Shown here in pieces: positions 17,485 through 27,298 of a stretch of DNA of 64,000 nucleotides. The notes under the pieces were generated by a model. It worked only from the letters and a program-made list of their open reading frames with translations. It did no database searches and had not been told where the DNA came from. The stretch is from Bacillota bacterium (GTDB lineage: Bacteria; Bacillota; Clostridia; Ch29): the NCBI GenBank assembly GCA_040766775.1, contig JAXGPT010000002.1:34607-98606 (forward strand), in the 5' to 3' direction. Numbering within the stretch: the stretch's first letter is position 1; the number at the start of each line of letters is the position of its first letter. The position numbers and the translations under genes were made by a program.

Positions 17485-17599
17485 AGCTGTGTTGGTTCCA
17501 TAATCTTTATGCAACTATTATATGACGCAAAATGTAAGACCGGCTGTTCTAAACAGCCGGTAGCAATGGTCATTTAGCAGAAGCTTATGAGCCGGAAAT

Positions 17600-18138
17600 A
17601 TTCAAAAGATTTTGCTTTATAAGGATTGTGCGCACGGAGCAGGCAACGGCGGCGCCCAGGGCAATCTTTATGATGGCTATGCCAATAAAGGGGAACACCC
17701 CGGCCATAAAAGCGGCCTTAAGCGTTATATCCAGCACCAGCGAAAGCTGCAGCATACCTGAGTATAGATTACACACAGCCCGCACAGCATGGCAAGAAAT
17801 GTACCGGTCAGCGTGGGAAGGGGCCTTTGTTCCACAATCTTTCCAATAACAAAGGAAGACAGCAAAAAACCCGTTATATAGCCCCCGGTAGGACCCATCA
17901 GCCGGGCAAGTCCGGCGGTACCCCCGGAGAAAACGGGCATTCCGATTATTCCGACGGCTATGTATATTAACTGGGAAAGCGTTGCCAGTCGGCTTCCGAG
18001 TATTGCCGCAGCAAGGCATACCGCCAGTTCCTGCATTGTTATTGGTACAGGACTTATGGGCAGTGGAATTGTAACCTGGGCGAAAATTGCTGTTAGTGCT
18101 GCAAACATTGATACAAGTATCATATCTTTTGTTTTCAC
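17600..18138 (-). CDS. bioY: Biotin transporter BioY (frameshifted near the 3' end)
   Basis: N-terminal 137 aa match BioY (PITMQELAV...GGTAGLARLMGPTGGYITGF); C-terminal part continues in another frame. Confidence 0.65.
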
Positions 18139-18245
18139 TTATTTCATCCTTTCTAACCGGGAAAACGGCTGTTTTGCATTCCTCGCCTAAATATCAGGAG
18201 CGGAGGCGTCGGAAGTCTATTTAATTATAAATGCAGCGGTTGCAA

Positions 18246-18321
18246 TTGTCAACCATAACCCGATGTAAGGTTAACAATAATAATGGTTGATTGACTATAC
18301 ACCGGGGATTGTATACAATAG
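18246..18321 (+). promoter_or_regulatory. Candidate GntR-type operators upstream of the GntR gene
   Basis: ATTGTATACAAT 12-nt perfect palindrome at 18310-18321; inverted repeat TTGTCAACCAT (18246-56) / ATGGTTGATTGAC (18283-95). Confidence 0.45.
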
Positions 18322-18349
18322 AGTCAATAAAGGAGGTTTCGGATGTGCC

Positions 18350-19009
18350 ATGAAAAGAGGGGTCGGCCAGGGAGGGTATTCTCTGAGGGAGAAGATTTTT
18401 CTCAAGCTTCGCCAGGATATTCTTGATGGCAAGTACAAGGCCGGGGACAGCCTGGTTGAGTTGAAACTGGCTGAAGAGATGGGTGTAAGCAGGACGCCGG
18501 TACGAGAAGCCATAAGGCAGTTGGAACTGGAGGGGCTGGTCTACAGCATTCCCAACAAGGGTGTTTTCGTGGAAGGAATCACCGGCCAGGACATTGAGGA
18601 TATATACGCAATACGGGAATGCATGGAAGGCTTGGCAGCCCGGTGGGCAATTGAAAGGATGGACGAACAATCCCTCAAGGAGTTGGAAAATTTATGCGAG
18701 CTGATGGAGTTCTATACCGGTAAGGGCGACCTGGACCGGGTGGGGGAACTAAATTCAAAGTTCCACGACTTGATATTCGAATCAACCAAAAGCAAGCCCC
18801 TGAAGCAGATACTCATCGATTTCCAGTATTACATAGGCAATATCCGGCTTGCTTCATTGAAGTCCCCCGGCAGGGCTGAACAGTCCCTTAAAGAGCACAA
18901 GGCCATAGTAGAGGCTTTTAAGGACAGGGATGTCGAAAGGGGAGAAAGGGTTTTGGTGGAACATATCAGGAATACAAGGCTCAACTATGAGAAAATGCGC
19001 AAGGACTAG
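18350..19009 (+). CDS. GntR/FadR-family transcriptional regulator (HTH + FCD domain)
   Basis: N-terminal winged-HTH ...LAEEMGVSRTPVREAIRQLELEGLV..., C-terminal FCD-like helices. Confidence 0.75.
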   Translation: MKRGVGQGGYSLREKIFLKLRQDILDGKYKAGDSLVELKLAEEMGVSRTPVREAIRQLELEGLVYSIPNKGVFVEGITGQDIEDIYAIRECMEGLAARWAIERMDEQSLKELENLCELMEFYTGKGDLDRVGELNSKFHDLIFESTKSKPLKQILIDFQYYIGNIRLASLKSPGRAEQSLKEHKAIVEAFKDRDVERGERVLVEHIRNTRLNYEKMRKD

Positions 19010-19096
19010 AACCGCTGCTTCCGGCCCGGGAAGATGTAAGCGCTACGGAATAAAGGATGCATAATCAAGGATATTCGGACCCGGCTTCAACCGGGT

Positions 19097-20131
19097 TTGT
19101 TTAATGGGAATTACCAAGCCAATATCAATTTGCAAGGAGTGATTATTATCAAAAGGATAGCTGTAGTTACCACCGGGGGAACCATTGCCATGAAGGCGGA
19201 CCATACCGGTCTTGCCAGTCCCTCCTTAAGCGGCGATGACTTAATAGCTGCCATACCTTCGCTGAAGAAAAGGGCGGCCGTTGACGTGTTTGCTTTCTGT
19301 AATGTTCCCAGTTCATACATTACCATGGACCACCTTGTCCGGTTAAGAAATTATATTGATCAGTTGGGAGAGCAGGGTTATGCAGGAGTAGTTGTAACCC
19401 ATGGCACCGATACAATGGAGGAGACGGCATATTTCCTGGATTTAACGATGCAAAGCAGTATTCCGGTTGTGTTAACCGGTGCCCAGAGGAACCCGTCTCT
19501 GGTTAGTTCCGACGGTCCGGCAAACCTGCTGGATTCAATCCTGGTGGCGGCGGATGACAGGGCGCACGAAATGGGGGTGCTCATTGTTTTTGCTTCCGAA
19601 ATTGTTGCGGCAAGAGAGGCTACCAAGTTTCACAGGACCAGGGTGGACACCTTCAAGAGCTTGGAGTTCGGACCCATGGGGGCAGTAAACAACGACAGGG
19701 TTATATGGTGTAGGAAGCCGCAGCGGGAGCCAAGGTACATAATTGAGAAGGCTGACAAAAGGGTGGACATAGTGAACTGTTATATCGGAGCCGATTCTGC
19801 CATGATATACAGCAGCCTGGAAAAGGGTACCGAGGGTATAGTGATAGAAGCCCTGGGCGCCGGTCACGTGGCACCGGCAATGCTGGAAGGAATAAAAAGC
19901 GCCCTTGAAAAGGGCGTACCGGTGGTGCTGACCTCAAGGGTTCCCGTGGGCAGGCTGCTCACCGATACCTACGGGTACGAAGGGGGCGAGAAGCATGCCT
20001 GCAGCCTGGGGGTAATACTGGGCGAAGACCTTTCGGCATGGAAAGCGAGGATAAAGCTTATTGTACTATTATCCGCAGGCCTATCGCCCACCCAGATAAG
20101 GCGTGAATTCGAGCATAGGTTTTACGACTAG
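19097..20131 (+). CDS. ansA: L-asparaginase
   Basis: IAVVTTGGTIAM...VVTHGTDTMEETAYFL motifs; true start likely internal near 19139. Confidence 0.8.
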   Translation: MFNGNYQANINLQGVIIIKRIAVVTTGGTIAMKADHTGLASPSLSGDDLIAAIPSLKKRAAVDVFAFCNVPSSYITMDHLVRLRNYIDQLGEQGYAGVVVTHGTDTMEETAYFLDLTMQSSIPVVLTGAQRNPSLVSSDGPANLLDSILVAADDRAHEMGVLIVFASEIVAAREATKFHRTRVDTFKSLEFGPMGAVNNDRVIWCRKPQREPRYIIEKADKRVDIVNCYIGADSAMIYSSLEKGTEGIVIEALGAGHVAPAMLEGIKSALEKGVPVVLTSRVPVGRLLTDTYGYEGGEKHACSLGVILGEDLSAWKARIKLIVLLSAGLSPTQIRREFEHRFYD

Positions 20132-22036
20132 AAAGGAAGATTTTTCGATGACTTCTTCCCACTCCGTGTACAGTGAATCCAGTTTATCACGGAGGCCTTT
20201 CAGCTTTTCGTTAAGCTCTTTTATTTTACCAGGGTCAGAATACGCCTCCGGCTGGCACAGGAGATGTTCCAGCCGGGTTATTTCTTCTTCTAACTCGTCA
20301 ATCTCCTTTTCCAGCCTGTCCAGTTTAAGTTTTTCCTGTTTCCTTTTTTCCCGCTCTTCCCTTTCCTTTTTTCTTTGATGTTTCATAGCCGTTTTTGTCG
20401 GGGAGGCTGTTTCGCTGATGCTTGCTTCTTCTTCCTGCTGCTGTTTTTTCATCCGGTAATAGCTGTAGCCTCCGTGGAAAAGGTTTATACCTTCCGGGGT
20501 AAGCTCGGCTGTCTTGCTGGTAACCCGGTCAAGAAAATACCGGTCGTGGGATATTACAAGGACCGTGCCGGTATAATTGCAAAGGGCGTCCTCCAGGGCA
20601 TGCCTTGACTTAATATCAAGGTGATTTGTGGGCTCGTCCAGCAGCAGCAGGTTTGACCGGGACAGCATGAGTTTCGCCAGGGCCACCCTGCTTCTTTCGC
20701 CTCCGCTTAGGCAGTCAATTGTCTTGTACACGTCATCGCCGCTGAACAAAAAGGCTGCAAGTACATTTCTTACCTGGGTGACCGGAAGGTCCGGGCTTTG
20801 GTCCCATACCTCGTCAAGCACCGAATTGGAAAGGTTAAGGTTCTCTTGCTGCTGGTGGTAGTACTCAATATTTGTATTATGGCCCTTTATGATGCTGCCC
20901 GAATCTGGCTGCAATAAGCCGGATATTATGTTAAAAAGGGTGGTTTCCCGATCCGTTGGGGCCAATTATTCCTATCCTTTCGCCCCGATAGACCTTTAAG
21001 TTTACGCCGTAAAACAATTGGCTGCCGGGGAAGGACTTGCAAACGTTCTCCAGCGACAGTACATTCCTTCCGCTTTAGCAAGCGGCTCAAGCTTTATCGA
21101 AATTCCTTCTGTTTCATGCAGGTTGATCCGGCATCTCAATACGGGACAGCAATTTTTCCCGGCTTTTAGCCCTTTTTATTGTTTTTTCCCTGTTATATGA
21201 CTTCAGCTTTTGTATAATTTCCCGCTGTCGGTCCATTTCACTTTGCCTGTTTTTAAAGTCCCTCAGCTGCAGTTCCATCATTACCTGTTTTTGCTTAAGG
21301 AAATCGGTGTAATTGCCCCTGGAACTGGTACAGGGCTGTATCGTCCAGTTCGAATATCCCGGTGCATACCTGTCCAGGAAATACCTGTCGTGGGAAATAA
21401 CCATCACCGCGCCCTCATAGCCGACGAGAAAGTTCTCCAGCCATTCCACCGCATTTAAATCCAGGTAGTTGGTGGGCTCGTCCAGCAGCAGCAGGTGATA
21501 TTTTTTGAGCAATAGTTCCGCCAGCGCGACCCGGGTTTTTTGACCGCCGCTTAGAAGTTCAACCGGCATTTTAAACTGGGCTTCTTCAATACCTAGCCCT
21601 AAGGGCACCCCATCTGGCTTTTGTATTCATAGCCCCCTCTTTCCGCGAACTCCTCGGTAAGGTCCCCGTATTCCTTCATAAGCTGTTCCAGGTCCCTGCC
21701 GGACGCCCTGGCCATGCGGGATTCCAGTTGGGATATTCGGATTTCCATTTCCAGAAGAAATGCGAAGTTTTTAACAAGATGCTCCCACACCGTTACCCCA
21801 GGGTTAAAATGGGGATGCTGGGGCAAAAGCCCTATGGTAGTATCCGCAGCGGTGTATATGCTTCCCGAATCCGGCTGCTCCAGACCGGAGATTATCTTGA
21901 AGAGGGTTGACTTGCCTGCCCCGTTGGCCCCTACCACGCCAATCCTGTCCCCGGGATGTATTCTAAAATTAATATTATTTAATATTGATTCTACACCAAA
22001 ACTTTTTGCTGATATTATTACATGACAGCAGTGCAA
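20081..22036 (-). CDS. ABC-F family ATPase (YdiF/Uup/EttA-like), two ABC domains + C-terminal coiled coil; frameshifted in this assembly
   Basis: Three consecutive minus-strand ORFs: 21599-22045 (domain 1: GANGAGKST), 21114-21608 (LSGGQKTRVALA...LLLDEPTNYLD), 20081-20965 (domain 2: LSGGERSRVALA..LLLDEPTNHLD..ISHDRYFLD + KE-rich coiled coil); TTG start with AAGGAG RBS. Confidence 0.75.
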
Positions 22037-22162
22037 TTCTTTCACTCCTTTTACAGGGGCAGTTGTTTAGCAACTATCGACTACCAACTAAAATGATATA
22101 TATCATTTTAACAAAATGGCAACTGATAATAAAGAAAACTGGGGTAAATGACCAGATTCTTA

Positions 22163-22192
22163 TTGGTAATTATTTAACAAACTGATATAATT
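22163..22192 (+). promoter_or_regulatory. Rex operator overlapping the rex promoter
   Basis: TTGGTAATTATTTAACAA (22163-22180) matches the Rex box TTGTTAA-N4-TTAACAA in 17/18 positions; followed by extended -10 TGATATAAT (22184-22192). Confidence 0.55.
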
Positions 22193-22254
22193 TAATTGAA
22201 GACTGGAAATAGATATTCATAGCAGCGGAATACTATGGGACGAGGAGGGGTAGA

Positions 22255-22890
22255 ATGGAGAAAATGAGAAGCAATATATCCATGGCTGTAATCAGGAGAT
22301 TGCCGAAATACTATAGATACCTCAATGAGCTGATGGAAAAGGGAGTGACAAGAATATCCTCTATGGAATTCGGGAGATCCTGGGATTACCGCTTCGCAGA
22401 TAAGACAGGACCTGAACTGTTTCGGCGGTTTCGGACAGCAGGGCTATGGGTACAACGTAAAGGAGCTTGTGGATGAAATTGCCAATATACTGGGCCTTAA
22501 CAAAACCAATAACGCGATAATAGTGGGTGCGGGCAACCTAGGCCAGGCTATTGCCAACTACAGCGGGTTCCGTGGCTCCGGTTTTATATTAAAAGGCATG
22601 TTCGATATAAACCCAAGACTGGTGGGTATAAGCATCAGGGACATTAAGATAATGGATATTGACGAAATGAGCGAGTTTATTAAAAAAGCCGGATATAAAT
22701 GTTGGCATAATATGCACTCTACGAGGCGCAGGAAGCCGCCGACAGGTTGACCGGCGAAGGGATTAAAGCAATATGGAACTTTGCACCCAGCGACCTGGAC
22801 GTGCCCGAGGATGTAATAGTGGAAAACGTTCACTTAAGCGAGAGCCTCATGGTCTTGGCGTACCTTATGAATCAGAGGGAGAACATGTGA
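22255..22890 (+). CDS. rex: Redox-sensing transcriptional repressor Rex (at least 3 frameshifts)
   Basis: IRRLPKYYRYLNELMEKGVTRISS; ...ITASQIRQDLNCFGGFGQQGYGYNVKELVDEI..IVGAGNLGQAIANY (Rossmann); C-terminal ..IKAIWNFAP..VENVHLSESL in a third frame. Confidence 0.8.
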
Positions 22891-22976
22891 GATAATAAAT
22901 AACATTAACAAGCAAATCGCGGCTGCCCGGAAACGGATTCAAGGCTGCGATTCGGTTTTTCATGGAAGTGAGGTAA

Positions 22977-23795
22977 GTGCCTATGCAGGTGGTATCCTTG
23001 GTTGGGTCCAGTGGGACCGGAAAGAGCTACAGGGCATTGATAGTAGCATATGAAAACGACATCGATTACCTGATTGACGACGGGTTGTTGATAAAGGGGA
23101 ACAAGATTGTTGCCGGGACCTCCGCGAAGAAGGAGAATACCAAAATAGCCGCGGTAAGAAGGGCTCTTTTCATGGAGCCTGCGCACAGGGAAGAGGTAGT
23201 GAAAGCCATTAAGGCCCTTGACCCCGATAGGATGTTAATACTGGGCACATCCGACGAAATGGTTGATAAAATAACCAGGGTCCTAGGCCTTAGCCCGCCC
23301 CAAAAAAGGCTGTACATTGAGGATATAGCCTCAGAGGAGGAGATAGAGCTTGCCCGGCACCAGCGGCGTTCAAAGGGCAAACACGTCATACCGGTTCCTA
23401 CTTTGGAAGTCAAAAAGGACTTTTCCGGGTATTTCCTGGATACCCTTAGAATATTCACCAGGAAGAGGGACGATTCCGTTACCGTTGACGAAAAAACTGT
23501 TGTGCGGCCGACGTACAGCTATCTCGGCAAGTATACCATATACGGCAGGGCTATTATTCAAATAGCCCGGGCGGCGGGCGAGAGGATTGAGGGGATAAAA
23601 AGGATTTTCAATACCGAAGTCGCCATCCATCCCAACGGAATAGTGATAAATACCGACGTGGCGGTGGTCTACGGTACCGCTATTATGGAGAAGATACCCG
23701 CCATGAAAAATGTCATCAAATCTGAGATTGAGCACATGACATCGCTCAACGTGCTGGCCATCAACGTTACGGTAAAGAGTTTGGTTATGGAATAG
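22977..23795 (+). CDS. Two-domain protein: N-terminal P-loop NTPase (GSSGTGKS) fused to C-terminal Asp23/Gls24-like domain
   Basis: Walker A at residues 9-16; C-terminal ~90 aa (TIYGRAIIQIARAAG..VAVVYGTAIMEKIPAMKNVIKSEIEHMTSLNVLAINVTVKSL) resembles the Asp23 family. Confidence 0.55.
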   Translation: MPMQVVSLVGSSGTGKSYRALIVAYENDIDYLIDDGLLIKGNKIVAGTSAKKENTKIAAVRRALFMEPAHREEVVKAIKALDPDRMLILGTSDEMVDKITRVLGLSPPQKRLYIEDIASEEEIELARHQRRSKGKHVIPVPTLEVKKDFSGYFLDTLRIFTRKRDDSVTVDEKTVVRPTYSYLGKYTIYGRAIIQIARAAGERIEGIKRIFNTEVAIHPNGIVINTDVAVVYGTAIMEKIPAMKNVIKSEIEHMTSLNVLAINVTVKSLVME

Positions 23796-24019
23796 AAAGA
23801 ACGGGACCTGTACCGCGGGTCTTTTTTTTTAACCTACATAAAACCTACAGAGATATACTGTTTACAACTATTTTTTAAGGTTTACAATTATTTTTAATAT
23901 GTTATAATTCAAATTGGAGGACTGCCTGTTGTATAATATGGTAGTTTCCCTGAAAACTATAATAGTCAAGCGCTTTTGTTTAGTACTTATCAAAATATAA
24001 TAAGAGGAGGTCATGTGTA

Positions 24020-25271
24020 ATGGCAGAAAAAACTATGAACCCCTTTGAAATTGCCCAGAAGCAAATAAAAGCTGCATGCGACAAACTGGGCGCCGAGCCG
24101 GCTGTATACGAGATTTTGAAACAGCCCATGAAGGTTGTGGAAGTGAGCATCCCTGTGAAGATGGACAACGGCGAGGTAAAAACCTTCATAGGCTACAGGT
24201 CACAGCATAACGACGCCATTGGTCCGGCAAAGGGCGGAATAAGGTATCATCAGGACGTTAACATGGACGAAGTAAAGGCCCTGTCAATGTGGATGACATT
24301 CAAGTGCGGTGTAACGGGTCTTCCTTACGGTGGAGGCAAAGGCGGAATTGTTGTTGACCCGACCCAGCTGTCCCAAGGCGAACTCGAAAGGCTGTCCAGG
24401 GGTTACATAAGGGCCATAGCAAATTTCATCGGTGACAATAAAGATATTCCAGCCCCCGATATGGGCACCAACGCCCAAGTCATGTCCTGGATGATTGACG
24501 AACTCGTGCCGTTATAAGGGGATACAAACGAGTTTGGCGCTATAACCGGAAACCGGTGGGCTTTGGCGGCTCGCTTGCAAGGACCGAAGCGACAGGCTAT
24601 GGTATTGCCAATATGGCAAAAATGGCCGCCGACAAAGTAGGGGTGAAATTTGAAGGCGCAAGAGTAGCGGTACAGGGCTTCGGTAACGGTAGAAGCTTTA
24701 CCTGCAAATACTTAAGCGAACTTGGAGCAAGTGGTTGTATTTCGGACGTCTCCTGTGCGCTGTATAATGAGGACGGTATAGACGTAAAAGCATTGATGGA
24801 ATATGCAAAGGGCAATAAATTCCTAATAACCGGTTTCCCGGGCGCCATGAGCTTCCAGGGAAGATATACTGGGCATGGAAGTGGACATCCTGCTCCCTGC
24901 GCTATGGAAAACCAACTGACCGCCGAAACCGCAGGCAATGTCAAGGCTAAACTGGTGAAGCTGGAGAGCCAAACGGCCCGACCACACCCGAAGGGGACGA
25001 GGTCTTTAAACAAAGAGGAATACCGGTGTTCCCGGATATACTGTGCAATTCCGGAGGAGTTGTAGTATCCTACTTCGAATGGGTACAGAACCTGCAGAAC
25101 TACTACTGGACCTTCGAAGAGGTACAGGAAAAACAGATCATAAAGATGAAAGAGGCCTTCGACGCCATATGGGCGCTTAGGGAAGAGAAAAACGTCGATA
25201 TGCGAACCGCAGCTTACATGATTGCCATCAAGAGGGTTGCGTATGCAATGAAGCTGCGCGGCTGGATCTAG
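24020..25271 (+). CDS. gdhA: NAD(P)-dependent glutamate dehydrogenase (at least 3 frameshifts)
   Basis: [25 protein letters not shown], ..[14 protein letters not shown].., ..VAVQGFGN.., C-terminal [20 protein letters not shown] spread over three frames. Confidence 0.8.
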
Positions 25272-25342
25272 AGAAGGACAGTTAAGGGACAAGGGGACAA
25301 GGGACGGTTCTTTGTCCCAAAAAGCAGCGTAAAAACGGGGCG

Positions 25343-25370
25343 GGGCAGACCGATCGGTCTGCCCTATTTT
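25343..25370 (+). terminator. Intrinsic terminator of gdh (insertion target of intron copy 2)
   Basis: gggcagaccgatcggtctgccc hairpin followed by TATTTT. Confidence 0.7.
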
Positions 25371-27298
25371 ATGTTCGCCTGACATGGGCAGTAACTAGGC
25401 GGTGAAAGTCCGCTATGGGCTTGGTAGTGGGAACCATTAGCTAAACAGCAAGGGTGTTCACCGTGAGGTGAAATCTGGAGGAAGCTGCGGCAGGCAAAAA
25501 AAGTCCCGGCACCCCTGACGACAGGAACTGCATACAAGGCATACGTGGAACGGACGAGTTTGCATAACAAAACGAAGTCCAACACTACCCGAATTCCACG
25601 GTGTAAATGCAGCGGTGACATGGGATGAAAGTTACTGTTCTTAATCGGGAGGTCTGGCAGGTACGTCAGGCAGGGAATGAATTTTCCCCATGATAACCAT
25701 GCAGCGATGTATGGCTGATTGTCAGAAGTCAGCAGAGGTCATAGTACCATACCGGATATATACGGAATGGGAAGGACCGAACGGAAGGATGTTTTGCATT
25801 GTGAAGCACACTACGAAATGCGATGAGCGCAGCCAACTTCATACTGAAGACTACCTGTGTGAGGATAGGGTGGAACCCGAAAGAAGCATGGGATAAAGAG
25901 AGTATTTCGTTTACGTCTTCCAAAGACCAAAACGATGGCAATGAGTATGCCGGAAGCTTGCCGATAAAATACTTGACCGAGACAACATGAACAAGGCATA
26001 CAAGAGGGTTAAGTCAAACAAAGGCAGCCATGGAATTGATGGAACGACAGTAGATGAACTTCTACAGTTTCTGAAAGAAAAATGGTGAGCAAATCAGCAG
26101 CAGCAGGTATCCGGGAGAGGGTACTTACAAGCCAAAACCCGTGCGGCGGATAGAGATACCAAAGCCGGGCGGCGGCAAAAGACTACTTGGCATACCAACA
26201 GTAGTGGACAGAGAGTGCAACAGGCAATAGCCCAGGTATTAAGCCCAATCTTTGAGAAGCAGTTCTCGGAATTGAGCTAGTGGGTTCAGGCCGGGAAGGG
26301 ACGCAAAACAGGCGGTATTGAAATGCAAGGAATACAGAAGCAGGCTACGACTAAGGATATTGACCTTGCGAAATACTTTTGATACCGTAAACCACGACAA
26401 ATTGATGGGCCTAATCCATAAAACCGTTAAGGATAGGGGGAGTAATATCACTTATCCGCAAATTCCTTCAATCAGGAGTAATGATAAATGAGTAGTGGTG
26501 GAAACGGAAGAGGGCTGTCCGCAGGGCATTCCCTTAAGCCCGCTGCTATCCAATATCATGCTGAATGAACTGGATAAGGAACTAGAAAGAAGGGGGCTTA
26601 AATTCTGCCGGTACGCCGATGATGTAAACATATACGTCAGAAGCAGGAAGGCAGCAGAAAGGGTAATGGGCCAGTGTTACACGGTTTATCGAAGACGATT
26701 TAAAAACTTAAGGTAAACCGTGAAAAGAGCAATTGCTGATAGGCCATGGCGGCTGAAATTTTTAGGTTTCTCCTTTTACCGTAAAGATAGTGGTATAGGG
26801 ATAAGGGTGCACCCAAGGTCACTAGCGAAGTTTAAATCCAAGCTAAAGGAGATAACCTCAAGGAGGCAATGCTATGAGCATGGAATACAGGATATTTAAA
26901 CTGAACCAGAGCATTACCGGCTGGGTAAAGTCACTTTAGCCTGGCGGACATGAAAGCAATAGCTGCTAAACTTGACGGGTGGATAAGGCGCAGGATAAGA
27001 ATGTGCTACTGGAAACAGTGGAAGAAAGTTAGTACAAAGCAACAGAAACCTTGTAAGGTTAGGTATAGACAACTACAAGGCATGGCAGTATGCCAACACG
27101 AGGAAAAGCTTACTGGCACACACAATAGCTTTATCCTGATAAATCCATCACCAATGAATACCTAAAAAGTTTGGGTCTAAAGTCAGTATCCGAAAGATAT
27201 TCATTAGTCCATTAATATCTTTTCGAACCGCCGTATGCCGGACGGCACGTACGGTGGTGTGAGAGTGACGGTGGGGTTAATCATCCCTCCTACTCGAT
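25371..27298 (+). mobile_element. Group II intron copy 2 (class-C-like; inserted right after a terminator); RT ORF decayed but keeps YADD
   Basis: Same 5' end as copy 1 directly after the T-tract; RT pieces include ..EGCPQGIPLSPLLSNIMLNELDKELERRGLKFCRYADDVNIYV..; multiple frameshifts; 3' end ...ctactcgAT. Confidence 0.8.

Follow-up and report, generated by a model that had tools for sequence, protein, structure and literature searches.

What is a nucleotide-binding motif doing in an Asp23-type protein? Proteins of the Asp23/Gls24/YloU group are abundant and widespread in Gram-positives, where they have been tied to virulence as well as to envelope stress and lipid synthesis. Canonical Asp23 proteins are stand-alone, acidic, and about 120-170 aa long, some of them with an AmaP anchor partner. 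In the window, by which we mean the whole 64-kb stretch of DNA analyzed here, the original prediction described a single gene next to rex in which a Walker A domain precedes an Asp23-like C-terminal half. It called this fusion unusual and named two findings that would speak against it: domain searches that fail to support the Asp23 homology, and an N-terminal half that belongs to a separate upstream gene. It also proposed an HMM search, structure prediction, and a survey of the phylogenetic distribution.

A single gene behind rex

The open reading frame is uninterrupted from 22977 to 23795 on the + strand, both in the ORF list and in the sequence. Two start codons come into question: GTG 22977 lies 2 nt from the Shine-Dalgarno GAGGT (22970-22974), and ATG 22983 lies 8 nt from it. 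Database homologues are 270 aa long and begin with MQVV, MEVV, or MKV at the same methionine as ATG 22983. Based on the Shine-Dalgarno spacing and the homologue N-termini, we take ATG 22983, not GTG 22977, as the true start; of the predicted gene limits, the stop at 23795 stands, but the start moves from 22977 to 22983. The gene and the signals around it are as follows.

22163..22191, + strand: promoter-like site 5' of rex, overlapping a Rex-box-like site (22163-22180, 1 mismatch)
22255..22890, + strand: rex, redox-sensing repressor (Put_DNA-bind_N plus CoA_binding), frameshifted in the window only
22911..22960, + strand: imperfect hairpin plus U5 in the spacer between rex and the fusion gene (-24 kcal/mol, z = -1.7, not significant)
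22964..22974, + strand: ribosome-binding site GGAAGTGAGGT, 8 nt 5' of ATG 22983, as read from the sequence
22983..23795, + strand: coding sequence of the P-loop-Asp23 fusion protein, 270 aa plus stop, ATG start
23803..23832, + strand: intrinsic terminator, a 9-bp stem and then a T-run

The gene is adjacent to rex, which ends 92 bp upstream, and has its own terminator, with the hairpin at 23803-23823 and the T-run directly after it at the 3' end of the gene; both points had been predicted. No paralogue was found within the 64-kb window. The 92-bp spacer contains no promoter-like site, and the rex promoter carries a Rex-box-like site, so the fusion gene is probably read through from rex, i.e., the promoter 5' of rex probably drives both genes, and we infer that they are co-transcribed. 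The spacer hairpin is possibly a leaky rex terminator. We rejected a leader RNA in the spacer (no Rfam match at E ≤1; hairpin z -1.7), as well as a Rex operator directly 5' of the fusion gene, where none was found: Rex-box-like sites occur only at the rex promoter and, with 2 mismatches, upstream of gdh.

The window is a noisy copy of a GCA_900198705.1-type genome. A 270-aa protein (P0001) that differs from the window protein only at codon 23 is present in several assemblies of one uncultured Clostridia bacterium, e.g., GCA_900198705.1 (2.6-Mb contig); the codon is TAT (Tyr) in the window and AAG in the reference (Lys, the family consensus). Over 8 kb, the window is 99.07% identical to this assembly with 41 gap openings, and 22 of the 34 difference patches are frameshifting. 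In the window, rex, the ABC-F gene, and gdh are broken by frameshifts, and the fusion gene contains a single patch. In GCA_900198705.1, the neighbors are intact: ABC-F (641 aa, opposite strand), rex (217 aa), the fusion gene, and gdh (417 aa). The gene had been described as intact in an error-prone region, and with one codon difference against 34 patches in 8 kb, this is what we see. The intact frame needs no special explanation, since error-free stretches of ~1.5 kb exist elsewhere in the window (18466-19995).

With about one indel per 200 bp relative to the reference assembly, could a sequencing error have merged two neighboring genes and so created the fusion artificially? Four independent assemblies of the organism carry this ORF in one piece, and so do hundreds of species, in which the identity is 45-93%, the hinge is conserved, and no stop interrupts the frame. 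This explanation is refuted. Nor does the N-terminal half belong to a separate upstream gene, as it lies in the same ORF in the window and in the relatives from other species. The protein is laid out as follows.

22983..23375, + strand: P-loop NTPase core, aa 1-131 (AF2 model pLDDT 89.5; invariant residues in 126 representatives)
23004..23027, + strand: Walker A GSSGTGKS, aa 8-15 (G8, G11, G13, K14, and S15 invariant in 126 representatives)
23076..23084, + strand: DDG, aa 32-34, at the end of strand 2; invariant, aligned with cytidylate kinase IDTG by hhalign
23376..23453, + strand: conserved segment A, GKHVIPVPTLEVKKDFSGYFLDTLRI, aa 132-157 (H134 and P137 invariant; low AF2 confidence)
23454..23489, + strand: linker between the modules, aa 158-169, of variable length and sequence in the alignment
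23490..23525, + strand: conserved segment B, EKTVVRPTYSYL, aa 170-181, immediately before the Asp23 domain
23526..23786, + strand: Asp23/Gls24-type domain, aa 182-268 (PF03780; predicted helix-strand-strand-helix-strand)

Profile matches show the C-terminal 87 aa to be homologous to Asp23. PF03780 matches aa 213-266 (profile positions 50-106) with 30.6 bits against a gathering score of 28 (E 4.7e-07), and the same match is found in 26 of 26 aligned homologues, with a best E of 1.1e-13. In one homologue (P0136), it spans profile positions 3-105 of 108, from which we judge the domain to start at about G182. The core of the original prediction is thereby confirmed, as a single ORF combines a Walker A at aa 8-15 with an Asp23 match above threshold, and the Asp23 homology on which it depended holds in the window protein and its relatives alike. 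The same HMM search returned no P-loop family above threshold.

A clostridial family

How widespread is this architecture? With a homology search we obtained 7,222 proteins (E ≤1e-3). The top 120 all have lengths of 267-301 aa and a query coverage of 94-100%. We also searched with the N-module alone (aa 1-158) against 1.84 billion representatives of 50%-identity clusters, which gave 799 clusters at E ≤1e-3. Among the 150 of these that were listed, nearly all are proteins of ~270 aa matched at the N-terminus, and the few shorter ones are apparently truncated. Because a search with the N-module returns almost only fused proteins of ~270 aa, the N-module and the Asp23 part essentially always occur together. 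When one genome per GTDB species was scanned, at least 585 species genomes contained a relative, and the named hosts among them are all Bacillota/Clostridia. Host taxa include Geosporobacter, Alkaliphilus, Natronincola, Thermotalea, Ruminiclostridium, Caldicoprobacter, Thermaerobacter, Mahellales, Acetivibrionales, and Oscillospiraceae, and the family is also found in many gut and rumen Oscillospiraceae/Clostridiales MAGs. An Oscillospiraceae/Clostridiales subfamily has a low-complexity N-terminal extension and a length of 340-570 aa. One family locus lies in a MAG labeled Candidatus Sumerlaeota.

Far from being special to this locus, the fusion defines an obligate family that is widespread in Clostridia. 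The description of it as unusual is apt relative to stand-alone Asp23 proteins, but not within the Clostridia, where the surveyed distribution shows the architecture to be widespread and obligate. The proteins are already in databases under automatic names, either "Asp23/Gls24 family envelope stress response protein" or "ATP-binding protein"; the JGI name is [quoted passage not shown] What is new is that Asp23 is permanently coupled to an undescribed P-loop module. A literature search (Asp23 with P-loop, Walker A, ATPase, or Clostridium) found no paper on this fusion architecture.

The genomic neighborhood gives a less uniform picture. We clustered the three nearest ORFs on each side of 80 loci, and the neighbors are mostly co-directional with the fusion gene. 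A universal gene partner was rejected by this clustering, as the syntenies are lineage specific. Directly downstream are cmk followed by, or fused to, plsC (15 loci), gdh (13), ogg (8), and DUF6062 (6); directly upstream are ytxC (12), a MarR-type gene (7), and rex (5). Within three genes upstream, rex is found in 16 of the 80 loci. The order in the window's lineage is ABC-F (opposite strand), rex, the fusion gene, and gdh; in distant relatives, rex lies 0-5 genes upstream, and gdh, ogg, and groESL lie downstream. The rex adjacency is itself a lineage-specific synteny. In the Oscillospiraceae/Clostridiales MAG loci examined, the gene forms a tight array with yebC before it and DUF6062 after it, with stop and start codons overlapping or abutting. 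DUF6062, the sole recurrent uncharacterized neighbor, is found no more than 6 kb away at 15 of ~90 loci, in either orientation, and a literature search found nothing on it.

Many of the hosts are spore formers, and ytxC, SASP, gerA, and Coat_F genes are among the neighbors in some lineages, so one might suspect a sporulation-specific protein of endospore-forming Clostridia. The upstream regions of 86 relatives argue against this: an extended -10 of the sigma-A type (TGnTAnAAT) is present in 34 of them, against 4.5 expected, and sigma-F/G/E/K consensus patterns are not enriched. In addition, the gene is carried by many of the gut and rumen MAGs noted above, and the spore-related neighbors are not conserved. 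We consider a sporulation-specific role very improbable.

The P-loop module and a proposed function

Which part of the protein is under selection? In an alignment of 126 representatives of 50%-identity clusters, mean column conservation is 0.57 in the N-module (aa 1-131), 0.54 in the hinge (132-185), and 0.33 in the Asp23 part (186-270). The main targets of selection are therefore the P-loop module and two hinge motifs specific to the family, GKHVIPVPTxExKKDFSGYF (132-151) and EKTVVRPT[FY]SYLG (170-182). Residues conserved at ≥97% are G8, G11, G13, K14, S15, D32, D33, G34, I37, G45, S47, A48, K49, and A61 in the first part of the protein (aa 8-61) and F63, T89, S90, M93, I97, L101, I112, A124, R128, H134, P137, P176, and G182 farther on (aa 63-182). 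The invariant polar residues outside Walker A are D32, D33, K49, T89, S90, R128, and H134. In segment B, E170, K171, R175, P176, T177, S179, and Y180 are invariant in the homologue alignment, with P176 at 99% in the 126 representatives. The linker between the two motifs tolerates change; P0136 has a Ser/Thr-rich insertion of ~80 aa there.

Modeled alone, the N-module reaches an AF2 pLDDT of 89.5. The predicted elements are strand 2-7, P-loop, helix 14-24, strand 29-32, hairpin 35-45, helix 54-61, helix 66-79, strand 83-88, helix 91-101, strand 108-111, and helix 118-131. Walker A sits between strand 2-7 and helix 14-24, the hairpin contains a GxSAK motif, LILGTS forms strand 3, and R128 is on the last helix. 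A canonical Walker B (hhhhD) is absent from strand 3: strand 83-88 ends in G-T-S and has no conserved acid, and D32-D33 end strand 29-32, as in DxD-type kinases. DDG is a candidate acidic pair for binding Mg2+ or the substrate. Conserved NKxD and DxxG motifs are absent from the family alignment, and since there is no conserved NKxD, the nucleotide is more likely ATP than GTP. One homologue (P0176) has an insertion of ~145 aa exactly between the K and the S of Walker A, which starts with Cys and ends with His-Asn before the Ser; an Intein_splicing match is sub-threshold. We read the insertion as a probable mini-intein. Inteins typically occupy functionally critical sites, and this one would point to Walker A as such a site.

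The N-module has no match to any Pfam, NCBIfam, or PDB family at threshold. Pfam scans of 29 N-modules and a PDB profile search gave generic P-loop matches, all of them sub-threshold (ABC_tran, AAA, AAA_22, AAA_33). Kinase families of Pfam (SKI, Cytidylate_kin, ADK, AAA_33, and others) gave nothing above threshold; below it, AAA_33 matches 16 of the 29 members (best E 1.7e-4) and Cytidylate_kin 2. PDB phmmer and profile searches found nothing significant for the N-module or the Asp23 module, and PADLOC (best E 0.025) and PHROGs (best E 0.0065) gave matches to short stretches but to no defence or phage family. Two specific identities were rejected. An HprK/P-like P-loop had seemed a lead from the G-x-S-G-x-G-K-S ... 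D-D spacing; Hpr_kinase_C matches 3 of 29 members (best E 0.005) and is absent from the best 60 of 95 PDB profile matches and from the top 50 Foldseek matches. The ABC ATPase family (PF00005) scores 15.8-17.7 bits against a cutoff of 25 (members' best E 6.7e-05), and the match covers only profile positions 12-98, without a signature motif or Walker B.

Structure comparison is similarly generic. The top 50 Foldseek matches of the N-module in the PDB are all P-loop proteins (prob up to 0.97, best E 4e-3, TM ≤0.46) and include FtsY, the GPN GTPase PAB0955, and cytidylate, gluconate, adenylate, uridine, APS, and shikimate kinases. In BFVD (viral predicted structures), polynucleotide, uridine, and thymidylate kinases come out on top, at E ≥0.017. 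P-loop kinases make up the bulk of both lists, and profile matches cover the first 35-40 residues. An hhalign comparison with cytidylate kinases encoded by neighboring genes aligns 31 columns (prob 84%), i.e., strand 1, the P-loop, helix 1, strand 2, and D-x-G, where the likeness ends. Structure prediction thus gives a well-modeled N-module with weak P-loop fold matches. The N-module is best described, from its motifs and predicted fold, as an orphan, compact, kinase-like P-loop domain. The kinase likeness is weak (best E 4e-3, TM <0.5), and with SIMIBI GTPases at the top of the PDB list, the choice of a kinase over a switch NTPase is tentative.

The P-loop module could instead be a SIMIBI/MinD-like nucleotide switch that toggles dimerization or polymerization of the Asp23 module, or its partner binding, with no phosphotransfer. 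The top PDB fold matches, FtsY and the GPN-loop GTPase PAB0955, are of this kind, and a conserved hinge modeled at low confidence is what would be expected of a segment ordered only in a complex. Asp23 also forms oligomers (PMC6954212). However, the family has neither the signature lysine of a deviant Walker A nor DxxG or NKxD, the TM-scores are ≤0.45, and the many invariant polar residues at the predicted active site are more suggestive of a substrate pocket. We consider a switch unlikely.

The proteins are basic, with a pI of 9.15 here and a family median of 9.4, which might suggest a nucleic-acid- or ribosome-associated enzyme, i.e., a polynucleotide-kinase-like or Era-like NTPase with an RNA-binding C-terminal domain. 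Era is the best full-length Foldseek match (E 3e-4), and phage polynucleotide kinases rank 1 and 6 in BFVD. However, the Era match, with a TM of 0.22 and an rmsd of ~20 Å, reflects just a P-loop plus a small domain, and the polynucleotide kinase matches are at E>0.01. By sequence, the C-domain belongs to Asp23, a family without a known RNA role. YebC is a translation factor, and in Oscillospiraceae the gene directly follows yebC in a tight operon, but this linkage is confined to some lineages (11 of ~90 loci). We regard an RNA-associated enzyme as quite improbable.

The reading we prefer, at a probability of roughly 45% for the whole, is a kinase-like, ATP-using enzyme that is assembled or targeted by its Asp23-fold module. 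The protein is basic (pI ~9.2) and two-module; it would be soluble and the product of a core, vertically inherited clostridial gene. Residues 1-131 would form a compact P-loop NTPase whose nearest structural look-alikes are P-loop kinases. K14 and S15 of Walker A would bind ATP, and D32-D33 would handle Mg2+ and the acceptor, by analogy with the acids after strand 2 in gluconate, shikimate, and cytidylate kinases. The substrate pocket may be lined by the G45-x-S47-A48-K49 hairpin motif and T89-S90, with R128 and the GKH134-VIPVP segment closing over it as a lid. A lid or a hinge is a possible role for segment A. The linker of variable length would tether the enzyme to the Asp23-fold module (aa 182-268), which follows the conserved EKTVVRPTYSYL strand. 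In the full-length AF2 model (mean pLDDT 74), the Asp23 domain has values of 76-92, and aa 134-185 fall below 50, so any mechanism between the modules is a guess.

What would the Asp23-fold module contribute? It is the least constrained part and may be a self-association or targeting device. An operon link joins yloU to fakA. Asp23 has been found to oligomerize in vivo (PMC6954212), and another protein of the Asp23 family, YqhY, has links to acetyl-CoA carboxylase and lipid synthesis (PMC5437119). We assign self-association or targeting to this module because Asp23 proteins oligomerize and sit near membrane and lipid-synthesis machinery. The P-loop module would then be the working part: organized in an Asp23-type assembly, it would carry out ATP-dependent phosphotransfer or hydrolysis and serve envelope, lipid, or stress homeostasis as a housekeeping function. 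The gene most likely occupies the second place of a rex operon in this organism and would hence be tied to redox state; in most other lineages, it would have its own sigma-A-type promoter.

A membrane or envelope role is an extrapolation, given a basic family and neighborhoods free of an AmaP-like anchor: none of the 14 largest neighbor clusters (80 loci) is an AmaP anchor, a small membrane protein, fakA, or acc. The fusion protein itself (GRAVY -0.08) has no hydrophobic anchor segment. An amphipathic membrane-targeting helix at aa 147-160 was rejected as unconvincing (moment 0.58 in the window protein, family mean 0.37).

It is tempting to go one step further, to an N-module that founds an undescribed P-loop enzyme family, with an envelope or lipid precursor or a protein partner as substrate and Asp23 permanently recruited for assembly or targeting. 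We hold this extended form to be doubtful. If it is true, the family would be a near-universal housekeeping system of Clostridia, and the first case of an Asp23-family domain physically coupled to catalysis, giving a handle on what the Asp23 domain does. The fusion protein is one of many conserved proteins without an assigned function, and it is a testable entry into Asp23 function. With an Asp23 fold always fused to a strongly conserved ATP-binding enzyme module, biochemistry can start from nucleotide binding, the substrate, and the partners. Hundreds of clostridial species carry members of the family, gut and rumen lineages among them, and the N-module fills a gap in domain databases, where no model covers it.

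Comparison with known systems

The N-module shares Walker A GxxGxGKS, the following helix, and a strand 2 that ends in conserved acids with the P-loop kinases, namely phage polynucleotide kinase, gluconate kinase (1ko4/1knq), shikimate kinase (2iyu/1via), cytidylate kinase (3r8c), adenylate kinase (2bwj), and APS kinase (8a8h). It differs from them in its unique GxSAK hairpin, in GTS in place of the Walker B Asp on strand 3, and in having only four core strands and a lid-like GKHVIPVP segment; all matches to them are weak (E ≥4e-3, TM ≤0.47). The SIMIBI GTPases (FtsY NG domain, 2q9a; PAB0955, 1yr6) are its top PDB Foldseek matches at prob 0.91-0.97, but the TM is ~0.40-0.45 and the rmsd 8-11 Å, and the N-module is much smaller and lacks G4 (NKxD) and DxxG. 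Era (1ega, 7c1o) has the same plan of a P-loop domain followed by a small alpha/beta domain. However, the full-length TM is 0.22, the fusion C-domain is Asp23 rather than KH by sequence, and GTPase motifs are missing.

The fold of the C-module is similar to that of the cytoplasmic C-terminal domain of the MamM CDF transporter (3w5x and others), with a target-normalized TM of ~0.7 and an rmsd of 3 Å over ~80 columns. The MamM domain dimerizes, and its identity to the fusion C-module is 11-13%. On the predicted model, this likeness is one of shared fold, with no evidence of homology. The NCBIfam model NF033218 for AmaP, the alkaline shock response membrane anchor protein, aligns aa 184-266 with its C-terminal part at 18.4 bits, against a cutoff of 55; with this sub-threshold score and no hydrophobic anchor segment, AmaP membership was rejected.

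The C-terminal 87 aa match the Asp23/Gls24/YloU/YqhY family (PF03780, DUF322), with a compact alpha/beta fold predicted. Compared with canonical Asp23 proteins, the fusion protein is longer, at 270 aa, and basic, and it has a P-loop module at its N-terminus as well as two hinge motifs particular to the family. The Asp23 part is its least conserved region, and it is on this least conserved third that the annotation "envelope stress response protein" rests.

Sequence errors and an intron polymorphism

Comparison of window positions 17500-25500 with a Clostridia MAG genome from the same organism (GCA_900198705.1) gave 99.07% identity. Over these 8 kb the alignment opens 41 gaps, and 22 patches shift the reading frame; they disrupt rex and gdh as well as the ABC-F gene and the asparaginase region. 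This segment is an error-rich copy of the known genome, and the frameshifts relative to it indicate that the seeming pseudogenes here are sequence errors, not biology. The P-loop-Asp23 fusion gene also differs: its codon 23 (window 23049-23051) reads TAT (Tyr), where the reference assembly has AAG (Lys), the family consensus. The Tyr codon probably reflects an error patch in the window, not true sequence variation.

Downstream of gdh lies a group II intron, recognized by Rfam matches and by fragments of a reverse-transcriptase ORF.

Group II intron features in the window
25457-27200, + strand: group II intron
25457-25639, + strand: Rfam group-II-D1D4-3, 110.5 bits
25693-25777, + strand: Rfam D1D4-1, 61.9 bits

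On the 3' side of the Rfam matches, the reverse-transcriptase ORF is in frameshifted pieces, with a YADD motif at about 26495-26716. At the intron position, another assembly of the same organism (locus L003) carries an intact 469-aa RVT_1+GIIM ORF, while a third (L002) has no such ORF; the intron is therefore an insertion polymorphism.

Rex-operator-like and Fur-box-like sites

A search of the window for the Rex-operator pattern TTGTTAAN4TTAACAA gave 5 matches against 3.4 expected by chance, so there is no window-wide enrichment, and only the positions of two sites are suggestive.

Rex-operator-like sites in the window
22163-22180, + strand: 1 mismatch, overlapping the predicted rex promoter
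23976-23993, + strand: 2 mismatches, ∼30 nt before the start of gdh

In relatives, a near-perfect Fur-box-like palindrome, TAATGATnATCATTg, was repeatedly found 40-210 nt 5' of the family gene (loci L006/L012, L013, L015, L016, L020, L027, L029, L033, L034, L043, L056 and L083), in hosts including Geosporobacter, Alkaliphilus, Natronincola, Thermotalea and Anaerophilus. Often the gene on the other side of the palindrome is transcribed divergently from the family gene and encodes a small ferredoxin or MarR. The window lacks this palindrome.

Gene neighbors and a Walker A insertion in relatives

In one gut-associated Clostridia lineage, a cytidylate kinase gene lies directly downstream of the family gene (loci L039, L050, L057, L058, L061, L062, L065, L072, L073, L075, L076, L078, L081, L082 and L084). 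The kinase and a PlsC-type acyltransferase form one fused protein (∼430-440 aa) in 8 of these 15 loci, and a separate plsC follows the kinase in at least 4 of the remaining 7. Both are phospholipid-precursor genes.

Three Oscillospiraceae/Clostridiales MAG loci (L089, L090 and L091) encode a subfamily with a low-complexity N-terminal extension, its gene inside a tight yebC-gene-DUF6062 operon. The family gene overlaps DUF6062 by 4 bp in L089 and L090, where a weak DsrE-like small ORF follows the operon, and is separated from it by 1 bp in L091. DUF6062, a Cys-rich protein of ∼250 aa on which a literature search found nothing, is encoded near the family gene in 15 of ∼90 loci overall, including Acetivibrionales-type loci, where it is sometimes convergent.

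One family member, P0176 (425 aa), has a ∼145-aa insertion between the Lys and Ser of Walker A (GTGK|C...THN|S). Pfam Intein_splicing matches this protein at 23.4 bits, under the cutoff of 35.8; judged from its sequence, the insertion is a probable mini-intein.
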